A DNA stretch of 32,000 nt from Candidatus Thorarchaeota archaeon (GCA_008080745.1 SHMX01000005.1:192847-224846); one strand, 5' to 3'; shown: positions 7,379 through 26,217, numbered from the stretch's first letter. The notes: generated by a model from the letters alone, not told the origin. Program-made: numbers and translations.

Positions 7379-7830
7379 TCTGATTCCCTACGGTCCTTAT
7401 TGGACCAGTAGGTTCCCTTTTTCTTTATCCATTCTTTCAGGTCTCGTACCATCAAATCGTGGTCGAAGGCCAGGGTGATAGTATTATGTACCTCATCCAA
7501 ATCGAACCATTTTGCTCCGGCTGCGTCATCGCCACCTGTTGGTTCTCCTTCTAATGGTCTAGCAATAAATACTGTACTCTGAATATGTTTTCTTGGGTCT
7601 CGCTCAGGATCACTGTATACTCCTAGGATATCCAGCAGCTCTACCTTCATTCCAGTTTCTTCTATTACTTCTCTTAGTGCTGCTTTTTCTACGGTTTCAC
7701 CATAGTCAACAAATCCCCCGGGAAATACCCACATACCCTTGTATGGTTCATTTTTTCGTTTAACAAGTACTATTCGATCCTGGTCAAGGATGACAGTATC
7801 TACAGTAGGACTGGGATTCTTGTACATCAA
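7375..7830 (-). CDS. NUDIX hydrolase (MutT/ADP-ribose pyrophosphatase-like)
   Basis: Nudix box GGFVDYGETVEKAALREVIEETG; LVKR...W..PGG; YSDPERDPR; LAFDH. Confidence 0.93.
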   Translation of the reverse strand: MMYKNPSPTVDTVILDQDRIVLVKRKNEPYKGMWVFPGGFVDYGETVEKAALREVIEETGMKVELLDILGVYSDPERDPRKHIQSTVFIARPLEGEPTGGDDAAGAKWFDLDEVHNTITLAFDHDLMVRDLKEWIKKKGTYWSNKDRRESD

Positions 7831-8882
7831 TATAGCTCCCTAGGAGATGCTCGTGCAAAGTTAGCAGCTGCAACTGCGGCAAAGATGAAAAACGCCAACC
7901 ATATTATCAAAGTAACAATGATGAGGCTTGTTTTGAAGAATATCTCTACCACTAGAAACATTCCTACCACAAGGATGTTAGTAACTCCTCCAAATGTACT
8001 ATTATCCGATTCACCAACTCGCCACTTGATTAGTATCATTATTCCAACAATGGATAAAGAAATCCAGTTGATCAAGTTGGTGAAGAGGTCGGATCGATTA
8101 GCAAAGGGTATTATTCCAAGCGGTGTTGGAATGGGTGGAAGATAAAGTGCTACAAAGATAGCAAAGAGAAGGATTTCACCAATTCTAATCTTGGTCGTGG
8201 GTGTGCTGGTATATACCTGACCATAGAGACCTCTGTCATATTGCTGTGCAGCGTGAAAAATGAAGTAGAATGGAGACCCAAAGCTAAGAGCATTGACAAG
8301 ACATTGCGCTATTCCATAGACCACTTTGAACCAAAAGTCGCTCCATGCTTGGAGTATGGTCTCCCATACCGATATGTAGCTTGGAATAAACTCTAACATG
8401 ATAATAGTTGGTAGAATACATAATGCAATAGCAACTAAGACTGCAAACAGGGCTGCAATTCTTCCTCCTCCAAGTTTGCCTAGACCAACCTGGTAGAATA
8501 CTCTCCCCGCAACAAAGAGTCCTCCAATTATTGCAAGGGGTGCGGTTACTACTGGTAAAATGAAGAACATCAAGATAAATGCAGCATTGCTGCCATAGAA
8601 TACTCTCCATCTGAGTGGTACAGCATCAGTGGTTTCTTGCATTAGATAAACGGTATTAGCAAGTCGATATCGACTGTTGTATATGATTCCAAGCCATGGT
8701 GCACTGAATACTGCTGGTACTACCGTATAATGAAACCACCAATCGAGAAGGGGATTCTGAAAGAGCGAGATTTGAAATGGTAGCAACCAAACCAATATGA
8801 AGAAATATATTGGTCCTAGGATTGCTATTAGTACAACCACCAAACGTGTCATTTTCCAATCTGGACTCACGCTGCCACCCAT
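7827..8882 (-). CDS. Multi-pass membrane protein, unknown function
   Basis: 351 aa with roughly ten hydrophobic segments. 4-nt overlap with the NUDIX start suggests translational coupling. Confidence 0.8.
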   Translation of the reverse strand: MGGSVSPDWKMTRLVVVLIAILGPIYFFILVWLLPFQISLFQNPLLDWWFHYTVVPAVFSAPWLGIIYNSRYRLANTVYLMQETTDAVPLRWRVFYGSNAAFILMFFILPVVTAPLAIIGGLFVAGRVFYQVGLGKLGGGRIAALFAVLVAIALCILPTIIMLEFIPSYISVWETILQAWSDFWFKVVYGIAQCLVNALSFGSPFYFIFHAAQQYDRGLYGQVYTSTPTTKIRIGEILLFAIFVALYLPPIPTPLGIIPFANRSDLFTNLINWISLSIVGIMILIKWRVGESDNSTFGGVTNILVVGMFLVVEIFFKTSLIIVTLIIWLAFFIFAAVAAANFARASPRELY

Positions 8883-10284: not shown

Positions 10285-11556
10285 ATGACAAAGAACGGTT
10301 CTTACGGCTTTGCGACTTGGACATCTTTTATCGAAGAGTCACAGATTAGAGCCTTGTTAAAATACAATGTGAAATACTATTTCGCAGGCGGCAAACCTGG
10401 CATCATGCCCACTAAAATATTTTCTAAGATTCTTGCTGACCTTAGTGAGTCCTACGCTCAAGACCCGAAATTGGCTCTTGATGATCTCAATTATGGTCCA
10501 ACTGGTGGACAGTCTTGGTTTTTGAAGACTCTGGCAAAACGCCTTTGTGATGTCCGGAATATTCCTATCGATTGCGATGATGAATGGCAGAATGTATCCA
10601 TCACGAATGGCTCACAGCAGGCTCTCTATGCACTTCTTGATACAATGATTGACCCAGGTGATGTGATAATCACTCCCTCTCCTGCATATCTTGGCTTCCT
10701 CGTACCCGCAGTAAAACTTGGTGCAAGGATTATTACCATACCAACTGATCTTGAGGGTATCATTCCAGAGTATGTAGAGAAGGCAATACATGTATCAAAG
10801 ATAAAATTCGGCAAAACACCTGATATTCTATATGTTGTTCCTGATTCGGATAATCCTAAGGGCACAACCCTTCCTATGAAACGAAGACAGGCACTCTATG
10901 ATATCTGTGAAAATCACAATATTCTCCTACTCGAAGACTCTGCATATGCGGAGATTCAGTTTAAGAAAAATCCCCCTCCGATCAAGACCCTCGATAAAGA
11001 TAATCTGCGAGTAGCTTATCTTGGAACCACAAGCAAAGAAGCTGCAGTTCTTAGAGTTGGATATTCCGTTCTTCCAGCTTCCGTTCGTGAACAGGTATTG
11101 AAAGACAAGGGATATCTAGACCTTTGCACCTCTACTTTGGTTCAGCGTATTCTAAACGAATACTATAGCAAGTATATTGATGAAGCAATGGCAAAGGCAA
11201 TTCCGCTGTATCGTGAGCGATACGAAGCAATGGCAAAGGCAATTGATGAATCATTCCCTGCAGGTACTCGAACAGACCCAACTGGTGGTTTCTTCATCTG
11301 GTGGGAGAGTGAAGACACAAGTTTTGATAGTAGCCGCTTCATGCAAGAGGTTGCTATTCCTCATGATCTTCTTTATGTTCCAGGTGGACCATTCTATCCA
11401 ATATCGGGTTACACATTATCCGATAACGGGAATGATCTTATTGACAGCAAACCCGAATCCAATACTATGCGAATTGGATTCTCATATGCTTCACCGGAGA
11501 TTATCTCTGAAGGAATTCATAGACTGGGAGAACTTCTCACAAAAGAACTAGGCTAA
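10285..11556 (+). CDS. PLP-dependent class I/II aminotransferase (LysN/2-aminoadipate transaminase-like)
   Basis: FAGGKP, LNYGPTGG, ITNGSQQAL, PAYLG, NPKGTT, EDSAY, PLP-lysine region GTTSK..LRVGY, GGFFIW, MRIGFS. Confidence 0.92.
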   Translation: MTKNGSYGFATWTSFIEESQIRALLKYNVKYYFAGGKPGIMPTKIFSKILADLSESYAQDPKLALDDLNYGPTGGQSWFLKTLAKRLCDVRNIPIDCDDEWQNVSITNGSQQALYALLDTMIDPGDVIITPSPAYLGFLVPAVKLGARIITIPTDLEGIIPEYVEKAIHVSKIKFGKTPDILYVVPDSDNPKGTTLPMKRRQALYDICENHNILLLEDSAYAEIQFKKNPPPIKTLDKDNLRVAYLGTTSKEAAVLRVGYSVLPASVREQVLKDKGYLDLCTSTLVQRILNEYYSKYIDEAMAKAIPLYRERYEAMAKAIDESFPAGTRTDPTGGFFIWWESEDTSFDSSRFMQEVAIPHDLLYVPGGPFYPISGYTLSDNGNDLIDSKPESNTMRIGFSYASPEIISEGIHRLGELLTKELG

Positions 11557-11564
11557 AGTTGAGT

Positions 11565-11602
11565 GTGCGGAATGGTGTCGGATTTCCGATACCATTCTAC
11601 AC
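11565..11602. terminator. Long hairpin at the convergent aminotransferase/bshC junction
   Basis: GAATGGTGTCGG (11570-81) pairs with CCGATACCATTC (11586-97) with one G-U and a 4-nt loop; the stem is extendable. Overlaps the bshC stop codon. Confidence 0.55.
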
Positions 11603-13312
11603 CATGAAGTTGATGAAGAGTGTAGCACCGTTTTTAAGACCCTGTGAGTGTGCACGCTGATATGGTCCGAACAAATCGGTGAATCCTGAGTTCAATGACC
11701 ATTCTATCCATGACCATGCTGACTCTTGACTAAGCTTATCTGGAGCATATTGGCCGAACGTCCAACTTAGATACTTCTCAATATCTAGTTTCAACATCTG
11801 TAACTCTTCATATTTTCCTCCAGAAGTTTCTTCTATCTCTTTGATTATTTCTTCATAGGCATCATTGAGTTGAGAATGAACTGAATGAAGATACTGGGAG
11901 AATTCCTGAACTGCATCATTCATCTTCTGATCATTTTCTTTTCGTCTGAATTTGTTGATTCTTCCACTCAGTTTAAACAAGTCACGATCATGAAGCACTG
12001 GAATGTCTTTTTTCTTGAGCTCCTTTCCTAACTCCTCATTCCAAGGTGTATTAAAATAGGTTCTAGGATATCTAATAAAAGCTGGAAAAGGCTCATCCAT
12101 CTCTTTTGCAGCTGGGATGACCTGTGCATAATATGCCGTTTCTCCAGGACCACCTACATGTGCAATTGTGGGTATTATTGTATCAATAGCAAGTTGCCTT
12201 GAATCAACTCGAAGGGAGAGCTGCTCTGCATGTTCTTCCAAATCTGGTTCCCCTTTTTCCACCTCTATCTGTATTTTTTCACCACAAGATGGACATTTCC
12301 CCTCTAATATTGCATTAGAACCTTGATCACGATAAACAAGCTCAGTCCTACTATTGTTACAATCCCTATTTGGACACTCATAGAGAAAAGGCACATAGTC
12401 CTTACCTCTGGACCCTGCCCCTGTAGCATACCCCTCTGCCCCTATCATTTGTGTTGCATTTTCATGGGCCCGTAGAAATGCACTACGTTTGTCTTGACTA
12501 AGTAGGTATTCCAAACCACTAAGAAGGGCTCTTCGGATTCTTTTATCTCCCGCAGGGACCAAAGGTATCCCAAGATTGCCTTCTATATTGAATAGGGAAC
12601 CAAGAATTCTGGTTGCCCATTCTCCTAATGTTTTTGAATTGACAAATGCCTTGCGAGTAACCGTTAATGCATGTTCAAGACGCTCATCAAGAAGTATTCT
12701 TGCTGTTCCATCAAGAACTTTGAATAGAGGTCTGTAACTTGATTTAATCGATTCTTCTGCCTCTCTGTACCACTCATAATCTGGGAGCGGAAGATGATTT
12801 ACAGGGGAGTATTCATAACCTTCTGGAACTGGGATGCTGATGAGATTCCCATTTTGTCCGATATTGGGTGTTCTGATATTGGTTAATTCAGATTGCACAA
12901 CGTCATAGTCTGCAATACAGAAATATGGTGTAACGGTTATTCCATTCTGGGTACAGTATTCCGATATTGAAACTGCTGATGCAGCTTTGTTTAGAATATA
13001 CCCGGGTCCGCCCATGACTATAGTCTGGTGTGCAGATTCAACTGCACCATCATGCAGATTCATTATTGAACTATGTACTTTGGGTGTCAAGCAGTTCATT
13101 TCTCTGTTTATCTCAACTAACACCCTCTGAATCTCTTTCACTCGTTCCTGTGAAAACCATGGTGACTTTTTATATTTTGCAAGTATATCTGGTACTCTGG
13201 TATGCAACCCCCCCATTTCTAGCACTGGCAGATTATAGAGATACTTCGCTAAGTCTTCGTTCTTTTGTTCCCAGATATAATCTTGATATATGTGATAGAC
13301 ACTTGGTTCCAT
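11597..13312 (-). CDS. bshC: Bacillithiol biosynthesis protein BshC (putative cysteine-adding enzyme)
   Basis: SAHQ..VMGGPGY..NKAASA (cf. GQQ..LF.GPLY..YK), IADYD (cf. A.EDHD), C-terminal HVGGPGETAYYAQV..A (cf. Y.GGPGE.AY.AQL), FPAFIRYPR. Lies directly downstream of bshA. Confidence 0.85.
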   Translation of the reverse strand: MEPSVYHIYQDYIWEQKNEDLAKYLYNLPVLEMGGLHTRVPDILAKYKKSPWFSQERVKEIQRVLVEINREMNCLTPKVHSSIMNLHDGAVESAHQTIVMGGPGYILNKAASAVSISEYCTQNGITVTPYFCIADYDVVQSELTNIRTPNIGQNGNLISIPVPEGYEYSPVNHLPLPDYEWYREAEESIKSSYRPLFKVLDGTARILLDERLEHALTVTRKAFVNSKTLGEWATRILGSLFNIEGNLGIPLVPAGDKRIRRALLSGLEYLLSQDKRSAFLRAHENATQMIGAEGYATGAGSRGKDYVPFLYECPNRDCNNSRTELVYRDQGSNAILEGKCPSCGEKIQIEVEKGEPDLEEHAEQLSLRVDSRQLAIDTIIPTIAHVGGPGETAYYAQVIPAAKEMDEPFPAFIRYPRTYFNTPWNEELGKELKKKDIPVLHDRDLFKLSGRINKFRRKENDQKMNDAVQEFSQYLHSVHSQLNDAYEEIIKEIEETSGGKYEELQMLKLDIEKYLSWTFGQYAPDKLSQESAWSWIEWSLNSGFTDLFGPYQRAHSQGLKNGATLFINFMV

Positions 13313-13323
13313 GAATTAACATC

Positions 13324-14487
13324 CTATTTTTCTACTGCTTCTTCAAAGACCTTCTCATACAGTGGCACAATTGCTTGTGCTGAAAATGATTCCTCTACTC
13401 GCCTTCTACCTGCCTTTGCATATTTTTTCCTACTCTTTTCATCATTGAGGAGATCGATAATGGCCTCAGCAAATTCTTCCTGTTCAAATCCCTTTGTTAC
13501 CTCTCCATCAATACCGGGACGGACCAATTCTGGGATTCCTCCTGCAGGGGTTGTGATGATTGGTAATTCACAAGCCATTGCCTCAAGAAGGACCAACGGC
13601 ATTCCCTCCATGGTTGAGTTCAGTAGGAATATGTCTGCTGCAGACATTATTTCTTGGATATTACTCTTAACACCTAGAAGGTGTACATTATTGCATAAAT
13701 CCAATTCTTCGATTTTTCGTTCTACCTCTATACGTGTGGGTCCATCTCCAGCAATTATCATTCGGGTTTCTGGTTGATGGTCTACTACTATACGCATGAT
13801 TTCTATGAGATCAACTACCCGTTTCACCTTTCGAAAATTGGATGCGTGGAAAAGAACTTTTTCTTCGGGGAGAATGATTTCCGGGTCCTCCACATTTCTT
13901 AGTGAAACACAGCCGCTTTCTACCACTAATCTGTATCCTTTTACAGGCTGAAACTCTTCTACATCTATGAAGTTTGGAATGACATGAATTTCACGACTGA
14001 TTTCAAGCTCGTTGATGGCTTTATTTTTTAGAAACTCGGAAACCGCGGTAACACCATTCGCTTCTTGAACTGTATGTTGAACTACAGGTTTGTAAGCGGG
14101 ATCCAAGCCAAGAGTGTGAACGTCCGACCCATGAAGAGTCACTACATATGGAATACCTGAGATTTCTCTTGCCATATATGCGGACATAGCATGAGGGATA
14201 GCATAGTGTGCGTGGATGATATCTAATTTGGCCTCTTTTACAACCTTCAAAATTTTTGAAGCAAGTGCCATAGAATAGGGCGGACCCACCGCTTTGAAAA
14301 GAGGATAATCGAATCTATCAACAAGGTCCACATAGATTCCCCTTGGTTGTTCCCACATTAGAGAGAAGGGTCTCTCATAGGTGATGAAATGGATAATATG
14401 TTCTCGTTTTGCTAGGGCATGACTCAATCGGGTAGCTAAGTAACCCGAACCCCCAACAGAGGGATACATGTTTACGCCTATTCTCAC
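13324..14487 (-). CDS. bshA: N-acetyl-alpha-D-glucosaminyl L-malate synthase (GT4)
   Basis: MRIGVNMYPSVGGSG.LAT.L, HFITYERPF, IHAHYAIPHA, VTLHGSD, HASNFRKVKRV, EGMPLVLLEAMAC. GTG start at 14487 preceded by AGGTGA SD. Confidence 0.92.
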   Translation of the reverse strand: MRIGVNMYPSVGGSGYLATRLSHALAKREHIIHFITYERPFSLMWEQPRGIYVDLVDRFDYPLFKAVGPPYSMALASKILKVVKEAKLDIIHAHYAIPHAMSAYMAREISGIPYVVTLHGSDVHTLGLDPAYKPVVQHTVQEANGVTAVSEFLKNKAINELEISREIHVIPNFIDVEEFQPVKGYRLVVESGCVSLRNVEDPEIILPEEKVLFHASNFRKVKRVVDLIEIMRIVVDHQPETRMIIAGDGPTRIEVERKIEELDLCNNVHLLGVKSNIQEIMSAADIFLLNSTMEGMPLVLLEAMACELPIITTPAGGIPELVRPGIDGEVTKGFEQEEFAEAIIDLLNDEKSRKKYAKAGRRRVEESFSAQAIVPLYEKVFEEAVEK

Positions 14488-14595
14488 GCAATTCACCTTT
14501 TTGTTTGACCCTGGTTCTACTCGCCTTTAAGAGCAGTGGTAGTAGCATGATTTCTAGTCAGAAACTTGATATTACTGAATGGGGTATCCTAGCAT

Positions 14596-15261
14596 ATGAC
14601 TGAGGAATCTGCTTGTGTTCTCGTAATCATAGCTCATCCAGATGATGAATCTCTTGGAGCGGGAGGGACAATACGTCAGCATGTCATCAACGGTATTCCT
14701 GTCGACGTGCATTGTATGACTGGAAACGAGGAACGGAACGAAGAGCTGAAGAAAGCATGTTCGGTTCTTGGAGTTAGAAATCTCTATCTGAGTGAACGAG
14801 AAGATTTTGATATTGACATGAGTATGGTTCATGAGGTTGTGGCAACCATTCTAAAGTCGCGCCCAACCATAATCATCACGCATTCTCAGGAGGATTATAA
14901 CCGAAACCATCAGATTTGTGCTCAGATAGTAGAGCAGGCTGTGGAGTGGGCCTCTCATATTACCATATTTGACAATGCTCATCGTGTAGAACGCATCTAT
15001 CACATGGAGATTAATTCTCTGCATCCTCATCCTCATGTGCATGTGAATATAACTAACTCCTATTCAGAAGCTTTGCATGCACTAAGACAACATAAATCTC
15101 AGACTTCAAAGGCAAATGATTTCTACGAAAAATTGTATGATGCACGAACTAGATTGCGCGGCGTACAGGCTGATGTAAAACGGGCTGAGGCATTTACAAT
15201 ATCATTGCCAAAGCACGCTGGTCCATTCTATCCTGAGAACAGTGTTGAAACACTGGTATAG
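14596..15261 (+). CDS. bshB: PIG-L/LmbE-family deacetylase, putative GlcNAc-malate deacetylase
   Basis: IAHPDDESLGAGGTI motif, H.SQ, R.RG...AEAF. Divergent from bshA. The second motif is atypical (DYNRNH instead of DxHPDH). Confidence 0.75.
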   Translation: MTEESACVLVIIAHPDDESLGAGGTIRQHVINGIPVDVHCMTGNEERNEELKKACSVLGVRNLYLSEREDFDIDMSMVHEVVATILKSRPTIIITHSQEDYNRNHQICAQIVEQAVEWASHITIFDNAHRVERIYHMEINSLHPHPHVHVNITNSYSEALHALRQHKSQTSKANDFYEKLYDARTRLRGVQADVKRAEAFTISLPKHAGPFYPENSVETLV

Positions 15262-15266
15262 GTCCG

Positions 15267-15665
15267 TTAACTGCCCTCTGCCTTCTTTCTGCGAGCTGCG
15301 AGAAGGGCTTTGAGCTCACCCATCATTCCGCCTCCACCGCCTCCGCCAGCTGGCTTGGGTGGGGGTGCTCTAGCTATTGGAGCCTTTGCCATTGCTGGAG
15401 CTGCATCAGCTGCATCGGATGGACCTGATGAAGATGGTGTAAATGACCCTGATGCTAGTTTACTCTGCATAGAACCTATCTGTGACTCTAAACCGCCGAC
15501 CTCACTTCTCAGAGTTGCTACTTCGGATTGTAGACCTTCAATAAACTCGATTAGTTTCTTGGTAATGGTACTAACAACTTCTCCAAGTTCGCGTAATTTC
15601 TCTTCTGTTGGATCTTTTAGAGCCCATTCGAACTCTTCCATAATGAAATCTTCATCGTCACCCAT
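15267..15665 (-). CDS. Coiled-coil / Pro-rich / Ena-VASP FAB-like (WH2-related) protein; candidate actin regulator
   Basis: Heptads LIEFIEGLQSEVATLRSEVGGLESQIGSMQSKL; flexible Ser/Ala/Pro linker ending APPPKP; C-terminal GGGGGGGMMGELKALLAARRKKAEGS. The CDS is well supported; the function is inferred. Confidence 0.7.
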   Translation of the reverse strand: MGDDEDFIMEEFEWALKDPTEEKLRELGEVVSTITKKLIEFIEGLQSEVATLRSEVGGLESQIGSMQSKLASGSFTPSSSGPSDAADAAPAMAKAPIARAPPPKPAGGGGGGGMMGELKALLAARRKKAEGS

Positions 15666-15786: not shown

Positions 15787-17163
15787 TCAAAGCTTCTTCA
15801 TGGTTTCCTCTACCACTGATTTCGCCAGTACAAGAATTTCATGGGTTCTTGCCTTGTTAGCTGCCTCACAGGTGATACGAATGATTGGTTCTGTCCCTGA
15901 GGGTCGTACGAGAAGCCATCCATCCTCAAGAACTATTCCTAGTCCATCTACAGTTAGAACCTCAACAACATCGCCCATTGATTTAGGTAAATATTCAGAG
16001 AGTTGTTCCATCGCTTCCTCTTTCTGATCATTAGGACAAGGCACTTTTGTTTTTTCAAGGGGATAGACTGGAATCTCTGCAATAAGCTCACCGAATGCTT
16101 TTCCTGTTTCAGCCATACTTTCAAGAATCTTGCAAATTGCTAAGAATGGCTCAGGTGCAAGATGGAACTCGGGAAAGATAAAGACTCCACAGGCCTCGCC
16201 TCCCATAATCGCCTTTTCCTCCTTGATTTTCACTGCGACTTGGATGTCACCGACAGGAGTTCGGATTGTCTTTCCACCCGCTCTTTGAACAGTTTCATCA
16301 AGGACCTTTGAACTGTCCACAGTGGTGACAATTGTCTTATTCGATTCCTCTCTAAGATAGCTCTTAGCAATCAGAGCAATGGTTCGGTCTCCCCGAACAA
16401 CCTCTCCTGTTTTTGTCACAAAAACAACTCGGTCCGAATCGCCGTCGTGCGCAATTCCCAAATCAGCCCCTGTCTTCTGGATGAGTTGAATTAGGTCTGT
16501 TAGTGATTCTTCTTCAGGTTCAGATTTTCTTCCAGGAAAATGACCATCAAGTTGACTATTTATGCTGACTACTTTACATCCCAATTCTTGCATCAGGTAT
16601 GGAGTTAGCACACAGGCAGCACCATTACCAGGATCAACTATCACCTTGTATCTCTTAGACCTGATCAGGTCTGCTCTGCACTGGTTGAGTAAGCGTGAGA
16701 TATGCTGACTTACTAGGTTTGGAATCATGGATTCTTTTCCGAGTTGGTCCCAGTCTGCCACCAAGTATTCTTTGGAATGGTATATCCGTTCCAATTCGGA
16801 CTCGATATCCTGTGTGAGACCCATGCTATCAGCACCCCAGAACTTGACTCCTGTGTATTCCGGTGGATTATGAGAAGCTGTCACCATCAGGCCCGCATCA
16901 TATCCAAGCTCTCTGGTCATCAATGCCAAAGTTGGTGTAGGGATTATTCCTGTGCGTACCACATTCACCCCGGTTGACAACAATCCCGCTGAAAGAGCAT
17001 CTGCAATCATCAGTCCGGTAATTCTAGCATCTCTTGCAATCAAGACGGTACCTCTTTTCAGATAGGTGCCAAGCGATTTACCCAAACGCATTGCCATCTC
17101 TACATCGAACTCTGTTCCGTATACCTTTCGGACTCCGGTCGTTCCAAAGAGCTTCTTAGTCAT
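15787..17163 (-). CDS. glmM: Phosphohexomutase (phosphoglucosamine mutase / PMM-PGM family)
   Basis: LFGTTGVR, phospho-Ser loop TASHNP, metal loop DGDSDR, GGEACG, RPSGTEP. Substrate specificity (GlmM vs PMM) is not resolvable here. Confidence 0.85.
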   Translation of the reverse strand: MTKKLFGTTGVRKVYGTEFDVEMAMRLGKSLGTYLKRGTVLIARDARITGLMIADALSAGLLSTGVNVVRTGIIPTPTLALMTRELGYDAGLMVTASHNPPEYTGVKFWGADSMGLTQDIESELERIYHSKEYLVADWDQLGKESMIPNLVSQHISRLLNQCRADLIRSKRYKVIVDPGNGAACVLTPYLMQELGCKVVSINSQLDGHFPGRKSEPEEESLTDLIQLIQKTGADLGIAHDGDSDRVVFVTKTGEVVRGDRTIALIAKSYLREESNKTIVTTVDSSKVLDETVQRAGGKTIRTPVGDIQVAVKIKEEKAIMGGEACGVFIFPEFHLAPEPFLAICKILESMAETGKAFGELIAEIPVYPLEKTKVPCPNDQKEEAMEQLSEYLPKSMGDVVEVLTVDGLGIVLEDGWLLVRPSGTEPIIRITCEAANKARTHEILVLAKSVVEETMKKL

Positions 17164-17267
17164 AGTGCCCACAATTTACTACTCAAAATTTCTCCATGAA
17201 AAATCTATCTACTGATAGGCAAAATATCTCTATATGTGGTTTTTCTTATTCTTTGCCCGGTGTTCTC

Positions 17268-18210: not shown

Positions 18211-18753
18211 GTGAGTAGTAGCTATGATTTCCTGTTCAAGGTAGTGGTGCTAGGGGAAGGCGCAGTGGGTAAGACTGCTATTGTTACACGCTTCTCTCAT
18301 GGTTTCTTCCGTACCGATTACAAGACTACTATTGGTTCTCAATTTGCAGTCAAGAATCTAGAGATTCCTAGTGGGAAAAATGATTCCCTTACAGTGAAAT
18401 TGCAAATATGGGATGTTGCAGGCCAGTCTCGTTTTCAAATCCTACGTCCCATGTATTACCGTGGGTCCAGTGGTGGTATCCTTGTCTATGATGTGAGCCG
18501 ACGGAGGACCTTCATTGTCCTTGAGGAATGGCTAGAAGAGTTAGAAAAGGCTCTTGGTAAGAAGATTCCTCTGGTACTTGTTGCCAACAAGACTGACTTA
18601 CCTGATCGTGTTGTTGATCCTGCAGAAGGTAAGGAATTTGCAGAACGTCACGATATGCCTTATGTCGAATCAAGCGCAAAGACGGGACAGGGGATAGTGG
18701 ATATCTTCGAGCAACTGGCTAAGACTCTTGTTGAAGAACGAACTACAGAATGA
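18211..18753 (+). CDS. Rab-like small GTPase (eukaryotic signature protein), no C-terminal prenylation Cys
   Basis: G1 GEGAVGKT, G2 KTTIG, G3 WDVAGQ, G4 NKTD, G5 SAK. RabF-like IGSQF, KLQIW, RFQILR, YYRGS, LVYDVS. Confidence 0.93.
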   Translation: MSSSYDFLFKVVVLGEGAVGKTAIVTRFSHGFFRTDYKTTIGSQFAVKNLEIPSGKNDSLTVKLQIWDVAGQSRFQILRPMYYRGSSGGILVYDVSRRRTFIVLEEWLEELEKALGKKIPLVLVANKTDLPDRVVDPAEGKEFAERHDMPYVESSAKTGQGIVDIFEQLAKTLVEERTTE

Positions 18754-18895: not shown

Positions 18896-19477
18896 ATGAC
18901 AAATCCTGATGAGTACTATCCGGTAAACACTCTTCCCGCCTTGGCATGGGCACTAAATCTCTACTTCAAAAAGGGTGCTCCTTTCAAAGAATCCCGAATC
19001 ATCGAAATGATTCTTCCTGCTGATAAGCACAAAGAGAAACTAAAGACGAAAGCTGTCCATGAGATTGCTGTCTGGATTGCAGATAAGCAGGTCTATGCCA
19101 GAGCAAGATGCCCGTACGATAAAAAATGTAGTTTCAATTCCGAACGAATTCTTGCAAAGAATCGGGAGGAACTCAAATCCCTTCCATGGGATAAGATTGA
19201 TCAGACAAAGTATTACCCAATACTCCGAAAATGGCTCTTGGCATTAGATTTTGACTATATCACTCTTATCAGAGCCTTGGCTGTTGTATGCGATAAAAAG
19301 GTCCAATTACCTCTTGAAACTAAATATGGGCGAACATTCAAAAAATTCAACGAATATCGAAGCTACAGGTTTCCTGAGGATGCAAAACCGGATAATATGC
19401 CTCGTTTCTTGGAAGAGGTTCTTGTCAGAGTGGGCTTTTGGATTCAATCGGCTGCTGAAGTGGATGCTCTCAAGTAG
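18896..19477 (+). CDS. Hypothetical basic protein
   Basis: 193-aa ORF with protein-like composition, same strand as the GTPase. No recognisable motif. Confidence 0.7.
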   Translation: MTNPDEYYPVNTLPALAWALNLYFKKGAPFKESRIIEMILPADKHKEKLKTKAVHEIAVWIADKQVYARARCPYDKKCSFNSERILAKNREELKSLPWDKIDQTKYYPILRKWLLALDFDYITLIRALAVVCDKKVQLPLETKYGRTFKKFNEYRSYRFPEDAKPDNMPRFLEEVLVRVGFWIQSAAEVDALK

Positions 19478-19514
19478 ATATCAGATATACTCAACAGGAT
19501 ATTTTGAAATATAT

Positions 19515-19535
19515 AGTGGGGGAGGGTCCCCCACT
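19515..19535. terminator. Perfect GC-rich hairpin downstream of the 193-aa gene
   Basis: AGTGGGGGA-GGG-TCCCCCACT (9-bp stem). Confidence 0.45.
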
Positions 19536-19891
19536 CACACAAAATTTTCGTTACCTCAAAGATTGTTACTAGTTAATTTCGAACTCCAAGTATACTATAT
19601 TTTCAGACAATATAAAGGAGATATTCAGAAGATAAACCAACAGAACCGTGCCTGGGAGGCTCTAGGGTCATTATACAGGGGATATAAATATGTAATGTGA
19701 CCATAACAATAGTTGACGGTAACAAACATTAACTTTTTTTCAATCTCACTATTATTATGTTTCCACAGATTTACTTGGTTACAATCAAAACTTCAAATTA
19801 TTTGAAATACTGACTCAGAAAGTACGAGATGATTACTTAATACTGATTTTTCATTAATTGTTAATGCCACCACTTCAAAAAAATAGAGATG

Positions 19892-19947
19892 CCGTGAACC
19901 CAATGGTTCACGGTTGTATTTGTTACCAAGGTGGATCCTCAGGATCC
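19892..19947. promoter_or_regulatory. Two palindromes, putative operator sites upstream of the CARF-wHTH gene
   Basis: CCGTGAACC-caat-GGTTCACGG (19892-19913) and GGATCCT-c-AGGATCC (19933-19947). Confidence 0.4.
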
Positions 19948-20098
19948 CCGGGTGAGTTCCTTAACTTCATGTTAATCAAGGAACTACATCTCTCGAAAAC
20001 AGAGGAAACAGTGAGTCCGAATTTCGTATGGTAGATCGATTGTTCGGATTATTTCGCTAATTTCGGAATTGTTTCCGAAGTCATATGGAGGGTGGAAT

Positions 20099-20788
20099 TT
20101 GAAACAAGCTGTACAGATCGTACCGTTAGAGTCTGAAAATGAAGCAATCATTCGTTCTTTGGTCTGGCAAAGACGATGCAACTATCTAGTTCTCGTCCAT
20201 GACCATGAATTACGTGAACTCGCTCTGAATATAAAGGGTGAATTCGATAGCTTGGCGGACACCACAACCTGTCAAGTACAACCTTTCGATTATCATGATA
20301 TTCTGGCCAATCTATTGGAGATAGCTCTGATATATCGTGATTATGATCTTCATTTCTCTCCATGCACAAAGAATCAGATCATGGTTGTAGCTTTTAGCAT
20401 GGCGGCTCAATTCTCCAATAGTAGGTTGCATTTGCTATCTCAACAATCCACCCACAGCAAACTGCCAGTTCAGATTCTTGACCTCACGCTTGTTACACGT
20501 CAGAAGCTTACCGAACCAAAAAAGAATATTCTTAAGCAGCTTCTAGATGAATGTGGTGGGCACGTTAAGTCGCTCAGAGAGTTAGGAACCCGTGCTGAAC
20601 TAGCTGCATCCTCTATCTCAGAACACATCCGTGATCTCATTGAAGCAGGATATGTGCAAGTTAAAAGAACGGGTAGAACAAAGACGACATGGATTACTCA
20701 ATTAGGTAAAGTCATTCTCCGTATCGCACAGCAATGGCAGGATAATGATATGACATGGGACGCAAAGAGATTTCATCAGATATGTTAG
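20099..20788 (+). CDS. CARF-like (Csa3/DUF6293-type) Rossmann domain + wHTH transcription regulator
   Basis: N-terminal VQIVPL..E....R / YLVLV / VQPFDY.DI / LHFS..K...V.AF.MAA pattern of a Rossmann-like CARF domain. C-terminal wHTH SLRELGTRAELAASSISEHIRDLIEAGYV..RTGRTK...ITQLG. TTG start after GGAGGGTGG SD. Confidence 0.65.
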   Translation: MKQAVQIVPLESENEAIIRSLVWQRRCNYLVLVHDHELRELALNIKGEFDSLADTTTCQVQPFDYHDILANLLEIALIYRDYDLHFSPCTKNQIMVVAFSMAAQFSNSRLHLLSQQSTHSKLPVQILDLTLVTRQKLTEPKKNILKQLLDECGGHVKSLRELGTRAELAASSISEHIRDLIEAGYVQVKRTGRTKTTWITQLGKVILRIAQQWQDNDMTWDAKRFHQIC

Positions 20789-22383
20789 AACGATGGCTAG
20801 AGGATATTCAGGACACAATAAAGCAACGATTCAATATCGCTACCAAAGCCCCTCCCAAAATCGTCGTTAAGGATGAACTTGAGAATAGTCTTGATTCTCT
20901 ATGGAATATAACGTTTGATGATAACATTGTAGAAATTCCTAAAATCATAGAAGACGATAAGCAATTCATCCGAGCGGTATTGGCACGAGAGTTATTCTTT
21001 CAATCAATTCAATCTCATGTAACCAATCATGAAGCAGCTTTTCACCTCTCAGCAGCATTTGCAATAGAATATCTAGATGATCCGTCTGACTGGTTCTCAA
21101 TCTGGGAGAACAAGTGTCCTCTAACAGCCACCTCTCGTCGGACTTGGTATTGTCCTTCGATGACTTTTCGACTTCTTCAAAAATTATCGGATGGAGATTA
21201 TCTAGATGAATTAATGGATTCTATTCTGTTGATGTCAAGGTATGGAATCAAGTTCTCTGATGAGGATTGGAAGCTGTTTTTACATAGATTCCTCAGAAAC
21301 TACTCCACACCGCTTACCTCTGCTGAAATTACAATAGTAGATGCACTGATGCGTAATCCCGATTCCACTAAAGCCGATATTGCCGAGCGTGCAAATATAT
21401 CTCCTGTTTGGGTCAGCACCCTAATTGCTGCAATGAAGAAACGTCACCAATTGCGAGAATTTGAGTCAATTGTGTTTTCAAGGGTTGGAATTCGTGTTTT
21501 TCAGATTGTTCTTGAACCCAAAAATGCGACACAAAACGACTGTGAAAAATCACTTCAATGGTGTCCTTACCTCTATACTTCTAATGCTATTGTGACTGGA
21601 AAACGAGGTCTTTTTGCTACCTTGGCGATTCCTGATAATCCCCAAAATATTCGTGACCTGCATAAATTCATTCAGATAGTGAAGCAGTCGGGTATTTTGA
21701 TCAATGTTTTTGAGCGAAACAGGTCTGCCAGAATATTCAATCTTGGTACCTACGAACCTAATGAAGGAATATGGAAAATCGATTGGAATGCCATATCTCT
21801 CGAGGCCGATTTATTACAACGGGATGAGTGGGCACCGGTCTTCCCTCTAGTTACTCAAGATGCTCCAAAACGGGCGAAATTGGACAAGCGAGATGTTCGC
21901 TTGCTCTCTGCTTTTCAGAAAGGATTTCGAACAATTCGTGAGTTACGTGCCGAAATCAGAGGTCGTTCGGCGGATATAACATCACGACTAAATCGTCTAC
22001 GGTCTGAAGATGTAATTCGTCGGATATGGGAGATTCATCATATTGGACTTAATGAGGGCGGACTAGTTGTTTCAAATGATTCCAAAACAAGTTCTATCTG
22101 TGCTGCTTTATCCCTTCGTTTACCGCTTGCATATGTTGATTTTGATACACAAGATAGATTGTTAATGCGGACCTTTCTTCCCCAAGGGGGAATCAATGGA
22201 TTTGCAAGATCTCTAGCAAACCTGAGTCCCCCTCCAGAAATACATGTTCTGGGACAACGATACCACGGTGCATATCGTATAGAGAAATGGATTGATGATT
22301 GGGACCCGGAAACTGCCGCATGGATGCCAACGAAGATTGATCGATCCGAATGGTTTGATTGTCTAGAAGCGCTTATTTCCTAG
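20782..22383 (+). CDS. Multi-domain regulator with two Lrp/AsnC-like HTH-RAM modules and an N-terminal unknown domain
   Basis: HTH1 LTSAEITIVDALMRNPDSTKADIAERANISPVWVSTLIAAM, Lrp linker FSRVGI; HTH2 LDKRDVRLL...TIRELRAEI...ITSRLNRL, HHIGL. ATG overlaps the upstream stop. Confidence 0.75.
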   Translation: MLERWLEDIQDTIKQRFNIATKAPPKIVVKDELENSLDSLWNITFDDNIVEIPKIIEDDKQFIRAVLARELFFQSIQSHVTNHEAAFHLSAAFAIEYLDDPSDWFSIWENKCPLTATSRRTWYCPSMTFRLLQKLSDGDYLDELMDSILLMSRYGIKFSDEDWKLFLHRFLRNYSTPLTSAEITIVDALMRNPDSTKADIAERANISPVWVSTLIAAMKKRHQLREFESIVFSRVGIRVFQIVLEPKNATQNDCEKSLQWCPYLYTSNAIVTGKRGLFATLAIPDNPQNIRDLHKFIQIVKQSGILINVFERNRSARIFNLGTYEPNEGIWKIDWNAISLEADLLQRDEWAPVFPLVTQDAPKRAKLDKRDVRLLSAFQKGFRTIRELRAEIRGRSADITSRLNRLRSEDVIRRIWEIHHIGLNEGGLVVSNDSKTSSICAALSLRLPLAYVDFDTQDRLLMRTFLPQGGINGFARSLANLSPPPEIHVLGQRYHGAYRIEKWIDDWDPETAAWMPTKIDRSEWFDCLEALIS

Positions 22384-22580
22384 ACTGGGGTCGCAAATAG
22401 CTCCCAAAAACTTGGACAATACTAGACAGAATCTGATAGGTGTTTATTTAGGCTTATACAGAATAAAGGTCTGGTTGAATGACACAGAATCCCTGACCAG
22501 GACAGAGGCAGTTCCAGTGCCGTTTCTGGGCGGACAAAGCTCTGGTGTCTACGTTTGTCCATGAAACAATGAACGGTGGA

Positions 22581-22603
22581 ATGGCAGTATTTTACACTGC
22601 CAT
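22581..22603. terminator. Hairpin downstream of the minus-strand Zn-ribbon genes
   Basis: ATGGCAGT-attttac-ACTGCCAT, 11 nt past the stop codon at 22615. Confidence 0.45.
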
Positions 22604-22614
22604 CTTATTCTGAT

Positions 22615-23595
22615 TTAGCTAGCAATCTCTTCTTCCTCTCCTAAGGTTACAGCCTTACGAAAGAATTGAAGGGCAAAGGCCAGCATTCCCAATCCAAATG
22701 TAGCACCAAATAATGTGGGGAATATTATATTTCCAAAAACGATAATTCCCAAGTAGACCAACACCAAGGCAATTCCTCCTCCAACTACAAGGTGAAGGAT
22801 TCCTCCGGTAAATACCATAGCTCGAAATGCAATCTTTCGTGGAAATGAAAGCGTGACGATTCTTCCTGATGCTCCGTCTATCATTGCATGATATGTGCGA
22901 ACAGAATATTTGTATCTGATATACCAAATAGGGATGTGAACCAGAAAGACTGCTGGTATGCTAAGATCTACATCAAACTCTTTGATTTCATCTACTTCCT
23001 CGTAGGCCTCAGCTCGAAGGATCTTATCCATCATCTTCTTAGCATCTATTATTGCAGTTTCACGTTCAACTTGGATAGGTTGTAGATTTCCCCGAGTTTC
23101 TAAGACAAGATCTTTGTCAAAATATTCCTTTCTCTTTGTGGGAATCATATAGGTCTCTAATTGTTCAGGAATATCTTTGGTTGCAGGAACAAAGATATCT
23201 TCCTCCATGTTAAATTTACCAGCTTCAGAAACCGTCTTCCATCCCATTTTTGTTAGCCCTGCGCTATCTCCAAAATTTGGTATCTTTTGTTCTCCTTTGT
23301 ATTCCCCTTTAGCCTCTACTTCCACTACCCAGAATGGCCAATACACAAGCTCGCTCTCAATAATCTCTGCCTTTTCTTCAATATCGTCAGGCGAGCCTAG
23401 TTGTTTTGCCGCCCAACTGAATGTCTTCTCACGTATGGCTTCGAGGTTGAATTGAAGCTTCATCAAATAACTCTCTTTGATTATTTCTCCAGTTCGTACC
23501 TGAACAGTTGTTCCGCAATATGAGCAGACAACGGTATTGCTTTGTTCTGGTATGTTAATGTTACCTGCACAATGAGGACAAGATATCTTACTCAT
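22615..23595 (-). CDS. Zn-ribbon protein with C-terminal two-TM anchor (paralogue 2)
   Basis: CPHC-x15-CSYC; YWPFW; VHIPIWYIRYKY....Y.A.IDGASGRIV; two C-terminal TM helices. Confidence 0.8.
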   Translation of the reverse strand: MSKISCPHCAGNINIPEQSNTVVCSYCGTTVQVRTGEIIKESYLMKLQFNLEAIREKTFSWAAKQLGSPDDIEEKAEIIESELVYWPFWVVEVEAKGEYKGEQKIPNFGDSAGLTKMGWKTVSEAGKFNMEEDIFVPATKDIPEQLETYMIPTKRKEYFDKDLVLETRGNLQPIQVERETAIIDAKKMMDKILRAEAYEEVDEIKEFDVDLSIPAVFLVHIPIWYIRYKYSVRTYHAMIDGASGRIVTLSFPRKIAFRAMVFTGGILHLVVGGGIALVLVYLGIIVFGNIIFPTLFGATFGLGMLAFALQFFRKAVTLGEEEEIAS

Positions 23596-24662
23596 GTTAT
23601 CATCTCTTTCACATCTTCTAGGGTAAAAGGCAGGTCTTCATCCTCACTCCTTTCCTCCCCTTCGGCATTAACTTGGATTTCATATTTTAGCACCCTAGCT
23701 ACCAATGCTACTGCAATAATGAATGCGGCAACACCGAGAACTAAAACCACTATGGGAATCAGCCATATCTCACCAGAATCGGAATTAGCCAGCAATGCAA
23801 AAAATATTGAATATGGTAGACTTTGAATTGCTATTGCTGAAACAATCAACATACCTACACTTCCAAACCATCTCAACAGACGATACCTCTTTGTCACAGG
23901 TAGTTCTCCCAGCACAACTTTTCCTGTTGCACCTGAGATAGCTACCCTAAATGTTCCATTTCGATAGTTGTACCGTACTAGCCAGTAGGGTGCATGAATG
24001 TAATCACAACTTTTGATATCCATGTCTAATCGGTAATCGAACAGATTTTCCATATTCTTCTTTAGCTCTTCTCTTTCCCTGCGAGTCTTCAAGAGATGAG
24101 CTCTTCGTTTTGCATCATTGGTTACTATTTCTGCATTGAGTACTGGAGCATTCTGAGTCAAATCGATTTCAAATTCTGCAATTTCCCCATCATCTAATGT
24201 TTGGATAAACTCCTGTATCCCAAAAGATGCTGCATATCGTCGTGCTAATACCCATTCGTTCTCTCGGGTTTGGTCTTTCCCCTCCATCTTCTTCCAGATT
24301 GTTTCATTACCTCTCTTGACCTTATCACCACCCAAGTGATACTTGATGCAGTCTGCATCAACCTTGAATGTGGGCATCCACTGAAGGATTGGTGTTCCAA
24401 TTTTGATATGTTTCATAATCCCTCTTCCAACCGTCTTGTCAGAAGCGAATGTGAGCCATGTTTTGACCTCCTTCTCGACATCCTTTGCTGATAAAGCATT
24501 CTTCAGTATGAGATGAGTTTTAACCTCTTCTCCTCCTACCTCAAAAGTATATCCACAATAAGGGCAGGTTGCAATAACATCATCTGCACCTAATGGGTAC
24601 GGGGCATTGCATTGCTGACAACGAAATTGAGCTATGCTCTTTGCCTTCTCTGTTGATTCCAT
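23592..24662 (-). CDS. Zn-ribbon protein with C-terminal two-TM anchor (paralogue 1)
   Basis: CQQC-x14-CPYC; WMPTF; IHAPYWLVRYNY....F...ISGATGKVV; two C-terminal TM helices. ATG 24662 with GGGAG SD; 4-nt overlap with the next gene. Confidence 0.8.
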   Translation of the reverse strand: MESTEKAKSIAQFRCQQCNAPYPLGADDVIATCPYCGYTFEVGGEEVKTHLILKNALSAKDVEKEVKTWLTFASDKTVGRGIMKHIKIGTPILQWMPTFKVDADCIKYHLGGDKVKRGNETIWKKMEGKDQTRENEWVLARRYAASFGIQEFIQTLDDGEIAEFEIDLTQNAPVLNAEIVTNDAKRRAHLLKTRREREELKKNMENLFDYRLDMDIKSCDYIHAPYWLVRYNYRNGTFRVAISGATGKVVLGELPVTKRYRLLRWFGSVGMLIVSAIAIQSLPYSIFFALLANSDSGEIWLIPIVVLVLGVAAFIIAVALVARVLKYEIQVNAEGEERSEDEDLPFTLEDVKEMIT

Positions 24663-24837
24663 ATTATCTCCCGCTATTATTATTCTCTTCTGAATGATTT
24701 TATCACCCATGAGTTGGTATTATGATAAATTCGACTCGAAATATCGTTCAGAACACAACTTCTTTAGTTCGGAACCTATAAAAGCTGTACGGCGTCTTTG
24801 GATAGCTTAGTAGACAATCTGAAGGCAGGTCAAAAAA

Positions 24838-25197
24838 ATGCAAATTCCGAAATTCTTGCTAAGAAAGCTCTATGTGAAAGGAAGCCTTGAGAATGCTGAT
24901 GACGGTTTCGTCTTCAAGATAAAGAACTCTCTCTCTGCGGGCACTGCTGTTGGTATGGCTCCTATCAAAGTGGATGGGACTGAATACCCTCTAGATGCAA
25001 CTGTTGTAAAGTCAGACGACACAGAAATCAAGGGCTCAGAAATATCAGAGAGCAACGCTTTTCCAATCAAAGTGGGTGTTGAGATTGCTATTCATGTCCA
25101 GTCGGACCCACTAGAAGAGGGCGAACACAAAATTGACATTTCTATTAAGACAAAAGAAGCTGGCAATCTAGCTTTCGATGTCAAAGATTCGATTTAG
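24838..25197 (+). CDS. Small beta-rich protein (LYVKGSL.N family; DUF6379-like beta-sandwich)
   Basis: MQIPKFLLRKLYVKGSLEN..DGF.F.IKN.L..GT pattern, recalled from small archaeal proteins. Function unknown. Confidence 0.7.
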   Translation: MQIPKFLLRKLYVKGSLENADDGFVFKIKNSLSAGTAVGMAPIKVDGTEYPLDATVVKSDDTEIKGSEISESNAFPIKVGVEIAIHVQSDPLEEGEHKIDISIKTKEAGNLAFDVKDSI

Positions 25198-25205
25198 AAT
25201 CAGTC

Positions 25206-25243
25206 CTGCAGGAGGATTCCCTTCTGCAGCCTCATTTTCTTTT
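25206..25243 (+). terminator. Intrinsic-terminator-like hairpin + T-rich tract
   Basis: CTGCAGGAGG-attc-CCTTCTGCAG (one G-U) followed by cctcattttctttt, 8 nt after the stop. Confidence 0.55.
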
Positions 25244-25305
25244 CAGAATGTTGCCTACAAAATAGTTTTGAGTGAGTAAAGCTCGTCATATATTGGTATT
25301 CAACG

Positions 25306-26217
25306 ATGTACGTCAAGATAAGGACCGATGGAGCCGTCGGAATAGGCCGCGGAACACCAAGTGATAGTGAGATCGCATTGGGTTATGGAGAGGCTCACAT
25401 GATTGCTGCTGCTCTAGAAAAGCTCGCCCAGACAGCACGTAATTACAAACAAACCTACAAGAAGACAACAGATGTTGGTAGTGGAAATAAGATTGAATTC
25501 GAGCGCTCTGACGAAGGTATGATCTCCGTGTCTGGTGATGGTCAAACCTTCATGTGTACAGAGGATGAGATTCGAGAGCTTGCTAGGCTATTGAAGAATC
25601 TCCCACCAATTGAGGTCGCTCCATCCTCGGATTATGCTCATAAAATTCCACCAGATGGAGCAAAATGCGTAGTTGTTAAGAATGGTTCCGACTCGATAAA
25701 ACTCAGATTGCCTGAGGCTGCTCTTCTGAAGGTATCTCTGTCTTCCAGTCTGGATAGCAAATTCTTCGAAGAACATATTCACATAGGACAGAAAGAACTC
25801 TGGATCAAGCGTTCCAGCGATTTGAAATGGGCACTAGGTCTGGATAGCAGTACTGTGAAGTTCACTGCGTACGAGGTAGAAAACCTCTCATCAGGCCTTC
25901 ACAATGCAATTCTGGATGTTCTGATGGATCTTGTCAAGTCTATGGGAACTGACAAACTGGCTGATATTCGAATTAAGAGTCAGATTCAGCGAATTGAGCA
26001 GGACACCCTCAAATTACTTGGAGAACACAAGAAAGCCAAGTCTATCAGTAAGGACCTCACAAAGATGTCTAAGAAGGTACTTGAGAGTGGTATTGATGCA
26101 GAGGAAAGGACTCAAAATTTCATAAAGATGTGCCAACATGTGTATAGCAATCTTGAGCCTTCCTATCTTGAGCCACTCTTTGATTTGTTCTCTTCGGTCT
26201 TCGTTGCTGATTCCTGA
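25306..26217 (+). CDS. Hypothetical protein with four beta-beta-beta-alpha repeats and a helical C-terminus
   Basis: Repeating strand-strand-strand-helix units ending GYGEAHMIAAAL, TEDEIRELARLL, RLPEAALLKVSL, TAYEVENLSSGL. Confidence 0.75.
   Translation: MYVKIRTDGAVGIGRGTPSDSEIALGYGEAHMIAAALEKLAQTARNYKQTYKKTTDVGSGNKIEFERSDEGMISVSGDGQTFMCTEDEIRELARLLKNLPPIEVAPSSDYAHKIPPDGAKCVVVKNGSDSIKLRLPEAALLKVSLSSSLDSKFFEEHIHIGQKELWIKRSSDLKWALGLDSSTVKFTAYEVENLSSGLHNAILDVLMDLVKSMGTDKLADIRIKSQIQRIEQDTLKLLGEHKKAKSISKDLTKMSKKVLESGIDAEERTQNFIKMCQHVYSNLEPSYLEPLFDLFSSVFVADS

Follow-up and report, generated by a model that had tools for sequence, protein, structure and literature searches.

The window examined here, a 32,000-nucleotide stretch of a Candidatus Thorarchaeota archaeon genome (SHMX01000005.1:192847-224846), contains a three-gene cluster composed of bshA, a bshC-like gene, and a gene for a PIG-L/LmbE-family deacetylase, and we describe it as a candidate pathway for a bacillithiol-type thiol. 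The original prediction had proposed a complete BshA/BshB/BshC pathway at this position in an Asgard-like archaeon, with bshA and the bshC-like gene co-oriented 11 nt apart and the deacetylase gene divergent from them. An open reading frame (ORF) check of the window finds the three genes exactly where they had been placed, and both the coordinates and the sequence bear out the arrangement (Table 1).

Table 1. Features of the candidate thiol cluster and its immediate neighbors, in window coordinates (aa, amino acids; PLP, pyridoxal phosphate)
Feature	Positions	Strand	Remarks
bshC-like gene	11597-13312	-	571 aa, ATG start
bshA	13324-14496	-	390 aa from GTG start
PIG-L/LmbE-family deacetylase gene, BshB candidate	14596-15261	+	221 aa
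Spacer, bshA stop to bshC-like ATG	13313-13323	-	11 nt, sequence read directly; operon-like coupling
Intergenic region between divergent bshA and PIG-L genes	14497-14595	.	99 nt; presumed shared promoter region, from the conserved divergence
Four-Cys zinc-ribbon-like insert of BshC-like protein	12284-12376	-	C313, C318, C340, C343
Archaeal glmM (phosphoglucosamine mutase)	15787-17172	-	TIGR03990, 524.9 bits versus cutoff 439
Small conserved ORF between PIG-L gene and glmM	15267-15665	-	Coiled-coil N-terminus, Pro/Ala/Gly-rich tail
Class I/II PLP aminotransferase gene, convergent with bshC-like gene	10285-11556	+	PF00155, 72.3 bits

BshA scores 376.3 bits against TIGR03999, for which the curated equivalog cutoff is 273.7, and aligns with model positions 2-374 of 375; among the control genomes, only Bacillus subtilis and Deinococcus radiodurans pass this cutoff. 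The protein has the N- and C-terminal domains of a family 4 glycosyltransferase (GT4; PF13439 and PF00534), and it matches B. subtilis BshA (5D00/5D01) with 251 bits over residues 3-389 and the Bacillus anthracis entries 2JJM/3MBO with 241 bits. The MshA model gives it 59 bits, and every envelope GT4 model lies far under its cutoff. From these matches it is predicted to be a GT4 retaining UDP-N-acetylglucosamine (UDP-GlcNAc):L-malate N-acetylglucosaminyltransferase. The public gene call is 381 aa long versus 390 aa from the upstream GTG, and we prefer the GTG start because residues 3-8 align with the first beta-strand of 5D00.

The deacetylase matches PF02585 with 72.1 bits (gathering cutoff 28.2), and its best PDB matches are BshB1 proteins (2IXD, 53 bits; 6P2T, 43 bits), with the archaeal diacetylchitobiose deacetylases at ~32 bits. 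An AHPDD motif at residues 13-17, containing H14 and D17, and a histidine at position 105 align with the HxDD and HPDH histidines of 2IXD; H14, D17, and H105 are presumably the metal ligands of the PIG-L site, as in the family generally. Two further PIG-L paralogs in the genome have BshB1 scores similar to that of the window copy, but neither is linked to bshA: one adjoins a nucleotide-sugar dehydrogenase gene and the other a hexapeptide acetyltransferase gene. It is thus synteny alone that marks the window copy out from its paralogs as the BshB candidate, and this gene is divergent from bshA in all of the Thorarchaeota loci examined as well as in another family, f12. We predict it to be a GlcNAc-malate deacetylase of a divergent archaeal type, judging from its sequence and its position.

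The BshC-like protein passes the Pfam model PF10079 (64.7 bits; gathering cutoff 27), and 4WBD is its only sequence match in the PDB. An AF2 model built with 79 sequences has a pLDDT of 96.9, and the top Foldseek match of the model is again 4WBD (E 1.3e-18, TM 0.66/0.70); the next best fold match is class-I lysyl-tRNA synthetase at TM 0.36, and aminoacyl-tRNA synthetases (aaRSs) all score 0.36 or less. Profile alignment with canonical BshC using hhalign gives a probability of 100% and E 1.9e-43 over 490 columns (residues 6-553) at 20% identity, and nine columns are invariant in both groups: Q96, G102, K109, D137, E142, R322, G388, E391, and Y394. The protein has the BshC fold and is homologous to BshC along its full length, and this homology is beyond doubt. 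It is predicted to be the cysteine-adding enzyme, with a class-I aaRS-like Rossmann core and a C-terminal helical domain.

The same protein groups in a deep archaeal clade that is sister to canonical BshC. When 1.84 billion representatives were searched exhaustively, 46 relatives were returned at E <= 1e-30; after these comes a drop in score, from 145 bits to 63 bits or less, to the full-length canonical BshC proteins. In a tree with 29 archaeal-type and 50 canonical representatives, the two groups separate with 100% SH-aLRT support on a joint branch of ~2.5 substitutions per site. Those archaeal-type members that carry names are all archaeal, namely Bathyarchaeota, Ranarchaeia, and Promethearchaeota; most of the named relatives of the BshC-like protein are labelled Thorarchaeota, which, together with Asgard-type genes flanking the cluster, agrees with the host that had been proposed.

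A feature of the archaeal-type ligase is an insert with four cysteines, all of them invariant in 10 Thorarchaeota sequences, that is modelled by AF2 with beta-strands over residues 309-352. The motif was found in 17 of 28 archaeal-type representatives but is missing from all 66 canonical representatives examined; by family, it occurs in f1, f12, f18, f9, and f26 and is absent from f5, f14, and f20. The insert flanks Arg322, one of the residues invariant across both clades, and its cysteine pattern suggests that it would bind a metal.

Within the Thorarchaeota the cluster is strongly conserved. The bshA and bshC-like genes are adjacent in 24/24 sampled genomes of the same family, representing 16 genera, and the Thorarchaeota loci examined keep the order aminotransferase(+) / bshC(-) bshA(-) / PIG-L(+) / small ORF(-) glmM(-). 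Among Thorarchaeota genera, BshA sequences are 68-87% identical and those of the BshC-like protein 44-72%, a spread that fits vertical descent. Thorarchaeota BshA forms its own clade with 100% support outside the sampled bacterial clade, although the bacterial sampling of this tree is biased, favoring relatives of a single Asgard sequence, and the outgroup branches are very long, so that the tree excludes only recent transfer from the sampled groups. The original prediction had asked whether the genes were inherited vertically or transferred recently; both the divergence among genera and the separation of the BshA and BshC-like clades from sampled bacteria speak for the former, and the pathway is an old Thorarchaeota feature rather than a recent bacterial import.

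These observations also bear on whether the cluster might be a product of contamination, of a chimeric assembly, or of very recent horizontal transfer. Bacillithiol, a sugar-cysteine antioxidant, has been detected in bacteria only, the genome is a metagenome-assembled one (3.16 Mb in 19 contigs, estimated to be 98% complete and 4.8% contaminated), and one Asgard family, f20, does carry a bacterial-type operon whose BshA groups with bacteria. The contig around the window is, however, at least 224.8 kb long, its GC content is even along the window (0.40-0.45), and the genes on both sides are of archaeal or Asgard type, encoding a Ras-family GTPase, GCD14/TrmI, HerA, an XPB-type helicase, a geranylgeranyl reductase, and an archaeal-type GlmM. 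A seven-gene block is found in the same order in independent Thorarchaeota assemblies, two closed chromosomes among them, and because the block is syntenic across the sampled family it is neither chimeric nor recently acquired. Together with the identity levels and the separate clades, this effectively refutes an artefact or a recent transfer, which we regard as extremely improbable; a bacterial or chimeric contig, which would have spoken against the pathway as first proposed, is not what we find.

The distribution of these genes was surveyed in 400 genomes sampled from the phylum. Families f1, f5, f12, f14, f16, and f17 have both BshA and the archaeal-type BshC-like gene; in f1, canonical BshA is present in 73/85 genomes and the archaeal-type BshC-like gene in 79/85. 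All three genes cluster in f12 too. Families f9 and f26 have no canonical BshA but instead an operon of a family 2 glycosyltransferase (GT2), PIG-L, and BshC-like genes beside an Amidohydro_2 gene (L114:7620-10943, L116:7238-10569, and L115:5559-8908), and their PIG-L proteins pass the BshB1 cutoff (203 and 201 bits, respectively); this operon probably makes a different cysteinyl-sugar compound. A flavoprotein of thioredoxin reductase size encoded beside the f9 operon was considered as a YpdA and rejected, as it scores 314 bits as a thioredoxin reductase versus 92 bits as YpdA. In f18, BshB1-like genes are located elsewhere in the genomes, away from the BshC-like gene.

Family f20 has no archaeal-type ligase and carries a co-directional, overlapping bshC-bshB-bshA operon (genome G118, L118:6162-9564), the proteins of which all pass the curated cutoffs, with 386 bits for BshC, 222 bits for BshB1, and, across the f20 genomes, 405-424 bits for BshA (423.5 in L118). 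The f20 BshA groups with sequences of Ignavibacteria, Bacteroidota, and Acidobacteriota, and the operon has the look of an independent acquisition, of bacterial type, within Asgard. There are thus three versions of the pathway across Asgard families: the archaeal type, the GT2-swapped type, and the fully bacterial type. Outside Asgard, a Bathyarchaeota contig (L209:4291-11399) carries PIG-L, Amidohydro_2, and BshC-like genes that are together convergent with a second set, encoding Thioredoxin_9, BshA, two DinB_2/MST-like proteins, and a MerR regulator; its BshA scores 384 bits and its divergent PIG-L 73 bits, and the BshC-like protein falls in the same clade. No other locus found for the archaeal-type clade has as rich a thiol-related context, and the thiol and redox neighbors of the trio support a role in thiol metabolism.

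In the pathway that we propose, GlmM, encoded beside the cluster, would supply glucosamine-1-phosphate (GlcN-1-P) for the synthesis of UDP-GlcNAc, the BshA donor; BshA would then move GlcNAc from UDP-GlcNAc onto L-malate, the divergently encoded PIG-L metallo-deacetylase would convert this to GlcN-malate by removal of the acetyl group, and the archaeal-type ligase, co-transcribed with bshA, would join cysteine to the free amine. We infer all of the substrates and the product from what was observed, namely gene order, conservation, family and fold assignments, and clade structure. The functional link of GlmM to the cluster is suggested by its position, as the 3′ end of glmM lies at the same place in 8/9 of the bshA loci examined in other Thorarchaeota; it may simply be a housekeeping neighbor. 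We consider it reasonably probable that the locus makes a bacillithiol-type thiol, either cysteinyl-glucosaminyl-malate or a very close analogue. The gene identifications first proposed stand as far as the families are concerned, and the cluster is real, archaeal, and conserved, but to call the pathway complete goes too far: only BshA reaches its equivalog cutoff.

Several points weigh against bacillithiol itself, and most of them favor a related but chemically different product, in which, for example, another amino acid or activated donor would give a new aminoacyl-glucosamine metabolite and the BshA acceptor would be malate or a similar hydroxy acid. The deacetylase scores 85 bits on the BshB1 model TIGR04001 (cutoff 182.5) and the ligase 69.8 bits on TIGR03998 (equivalog cutoff 265.8), leaving both far under equivalog level. 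The canonical BshC clade does not include the ligase, a placement that had been named beforehand as evidence against the pathway; the ligase does sit in a clade of its own, at the end of a long branch and with an insert absent from canonical BshC, yet it remains a full-length homologue with the BshC fold. The same ligase clade is paired with a GT2 in f9 and f26, indicating acceptor flexibility, and 51 sampled Asgard genomes (in f18, f19, f26, f9, and f27) have the archaeal-type BshC-like gene without canonical BshA; the clade is therefore not tied to GlcN-malate as its sole acceptor, and so a variant product is possible in Thorarchaeota too. The original prediction suggested a search for proteins that use bacillithiol, and this did not bring the expected partners to light: the 98%-complete genome has no match to BrxA/B (PF06491) or to YtxJ (TIGR04019), and its best YpdA match (TIGR04018) reaches 87.7 bits versus a cutoff of 339.9. 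What the genome does encode is a pair of DinB_2 proteins, along with a weak Thioredoxin_9 homologue. No archaeon has yet been found to contain bacillithiol (PMC7278568), and the reaction of BshC is biochemically undefined: according to a review of 2018, even the canonical enzyme had yet to be reconstituted in vitro (PMC5790435). The restricted reach of the BshA tree, described above, belongs with these points.

We nevertheless regard a chemically different product, the leading alternative, as rather unlikely, as BshA is at equivalog level, the BshC core motifs are kept across both clades, and the Bathyarchaeota relative lies among genes for DinB/MST-type transferase-fold and thioredoxin-fold proteins, which points to a thiol; nothing in our analysis points positively to another amino acid. 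A more distant alternative is that the GT4, PIG-L, and GlmM build a GlcN glycolipid or glycan, similar to that of glycosylphosphatidylinositol, in a glycoconjugate or envelope role to which the function of the BshC-like protein is unrelated. A GT4 and a PIG-L deacetylase also carry out the first two steps of GlcN-phosphatidylinositol-type lipid synthesis, and the adjacency of glmM, the many GT4 paralogs in the genome, and the location of both other PIG-L genes beside sugar-modifying genes are all compatible with such a role. It is improbable, however, given that the GT4 scores 376 bits on the BshA model versus 59 on MshA and far under cutoff on envelope GT4 models, that bshA is closely coupled, at the level of translation, to a BshC homologue in every sampled genome of the family, that the block contains no membrane or lipid-carrier gene, and that the context of the Bathyarchaeota cluster is one of redox rather than envelope functions.

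A broader version of the thiol reading can also be entertained, in which the divergent PIG-L and the zinc-ribbon BshC-like protein constitute an ancient archaeal module, shared by Thorarchaeota, Loki-type and other Asgard archaea, and Bathyarchaeota, that makes cysteinyl-glucosamine thiols on interchangeable GT4-BshA or GT2 scaffolds, with the Thorarchaeota product or its mode of cysteine activation differing from that of bacteria. We offer this tentatively and hold it to be unlikely as a whole. In such a module the zinc ribbon framing Arg322 could be a docking site for an activated-cysteine donor and, if the idea is true, the archaeal clade would be a tractable route to the unsolved BshC reaction.

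The closest known system is the bacterial BshA-BshB-BshC pathway of B. subtilis, B. anthracis, Staphylococcus aureus, Deinococcus, and Chlorobi (5D00, 2IXD/6P2T, and 4WBD), which shares with the window the same three enzyme families, here found in one locus. The likeness extends to an equivalog-level BshA, a deacetylase that is nearest to BshB1, and a ligase with the fold, length, and core motifs of BshC. Unlike the bacterial system, the Thorarchaeota one has a deacetylase and a ligase under the cutoffs, the ligase being ~20% identical to canonical BshC, in an archaeal clade, and equipped with the four-Cys insert; BrxA/B, YtxJ, and YpdA were not found in the genome, the host is an Asgard archaeon of anaerobic sediment, and the system is known from its genes alone. 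The GT2 - PIG-L - BshC-like operon of f9 and f26 resembles the window in having a PIG-L and a ligase of the same archaeal-type clade with the four-Cys motif, but differs in its GT2, which has an inverting fold, its PIG-L passing the BshB1 cutoff, and its attached Amidohydro_2, whereas the window has BshA, a divergent PIG-L, and no adjacent amidohydrolase. A link to Amidohydro_2 at the window locus was examined and dropped, as the homologue in the genome, at 39% identity, adjoins the gene for topoisomerase VI subunit A and has no thiol context. With the mycothiol pathway of Actinomycetota (MshA-MshB-MshC) the cluster shares the logic of GlcNAc transfer by a GT4, deacetylation by a PIG-L-family enzyme, and cysteine ligation by a class-I aaRS-like enzyme; unlike mycothiol enzymes, however, the window proteins give only 59, 29, and 22 bits on the MshA, MshB, and Mca models, and MshC (3C8Z) is a distant fold match (TM ~0.2); signs of an inositol-phosphate pathway were not encountered, although no search aimed at them was made.

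The original prediction left open whether such genes had been reported in archaea, and they had. Rawat and Maupin-Furlow (2020; PMC7278568, section 13) counted 39 archaeal InterPro hits for BshA and as many for BshC, most of them from Asgard archaea, but just two for YpdA, and raised the possibility of bacillithiol synthesis in archaea. In NCBI records, too, the Thorarchaeota proteins are already called BshA and the archaeal-type proteins BshC. That report concerns the same phenomenon but gives counts only, without the PIG-L clustering, the archaeal BshC clade, the zinc-ribbon insert, the distribution by family, or the three versions of the pathway. Since the occurrence of these genes is both published and annotated, the value of the present analysis lies in the details rather than in discovery, and the context that is new here is the existence of three Asgard pathway versions. 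Two of the three enzymes lie on divergent, uncharacterised archaeal branches. A 2025 survey of RefSeq (PMC12719100) found no archaeon with a complete pathway, which is consistent with divergent BshB and BshC proteins missing standard thresholds.

The cluster had also been put forward as relevant to redox biology near the eukaryotic root. This link is weak. The archaeal-type clade is also present in Bathyarchaeota and is patchy within Asgard. The three Asgard versions imply that thiol-buffer genes have been reshuffled or exchanged repeatedly, and this argues against the cluster as a trait inherited by eukaryotes. Its interest lies elsewhere: bacillithiol is not known from any archaeon, and a conserved, near-universal Thorarchaeota cluster is a concrete and clonable prediction about the low-molecular-weight thiols of the Asgard group. 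The BshC reaction is moreover a standing gap, and a divergent clade in which few residues are invariant narrows the choice of those that matter; the extra module with its four cysteines may point the way to the missing substrate or partner of BshC.

Two further genes accompany the cluster. The small ORF between the PIG-L gene and glmM has 52-92% identity across Thorarchaeota genera over residues 1-71, and it is syntenic, always lying between these two genes. It has no Pfam or NCBIfam match, and its candidacy as a redoxin was dropped, as it has no cysteine and no family match. The aminotransferase is 72-94% identical among Thorarchaeota loci and occupies the same position in them, and it is also paired with the BshC-like gene in f18 (53-54% identity), there without an adjacent bshA or PIG-L gene (L113:9864-11135 and L117:5921-7177); the pairing may be chance synteny or reflect a functional link to the ligase. 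Within the 40 nt that separate the aminotransferase gene from the convergent bshC-like gene (11557-11596) lies an imperfect inverted repeat, AATGGTGTCGGA ... TCCGATACCATT; it may form a bidirectional terminator-like hairpin.

Elsewhere in the window there are no tRNA genes or Rfam families, and several sizeable ORFs are without a Pfam match at E <= 1e-5, namely 418-2757 (779 aa), 7827-8882 (351 aa), and a run of six successive ORFs of 193 to 542 aa at 18896-26217. About 3 kb from the cluster, the ORF at 18211-18753 encodes the Ras-family small GTPase, which matches PF00071 with 167 bits as well as Roc and Arf and is a typical Asgard eukaryotic-signature protein.

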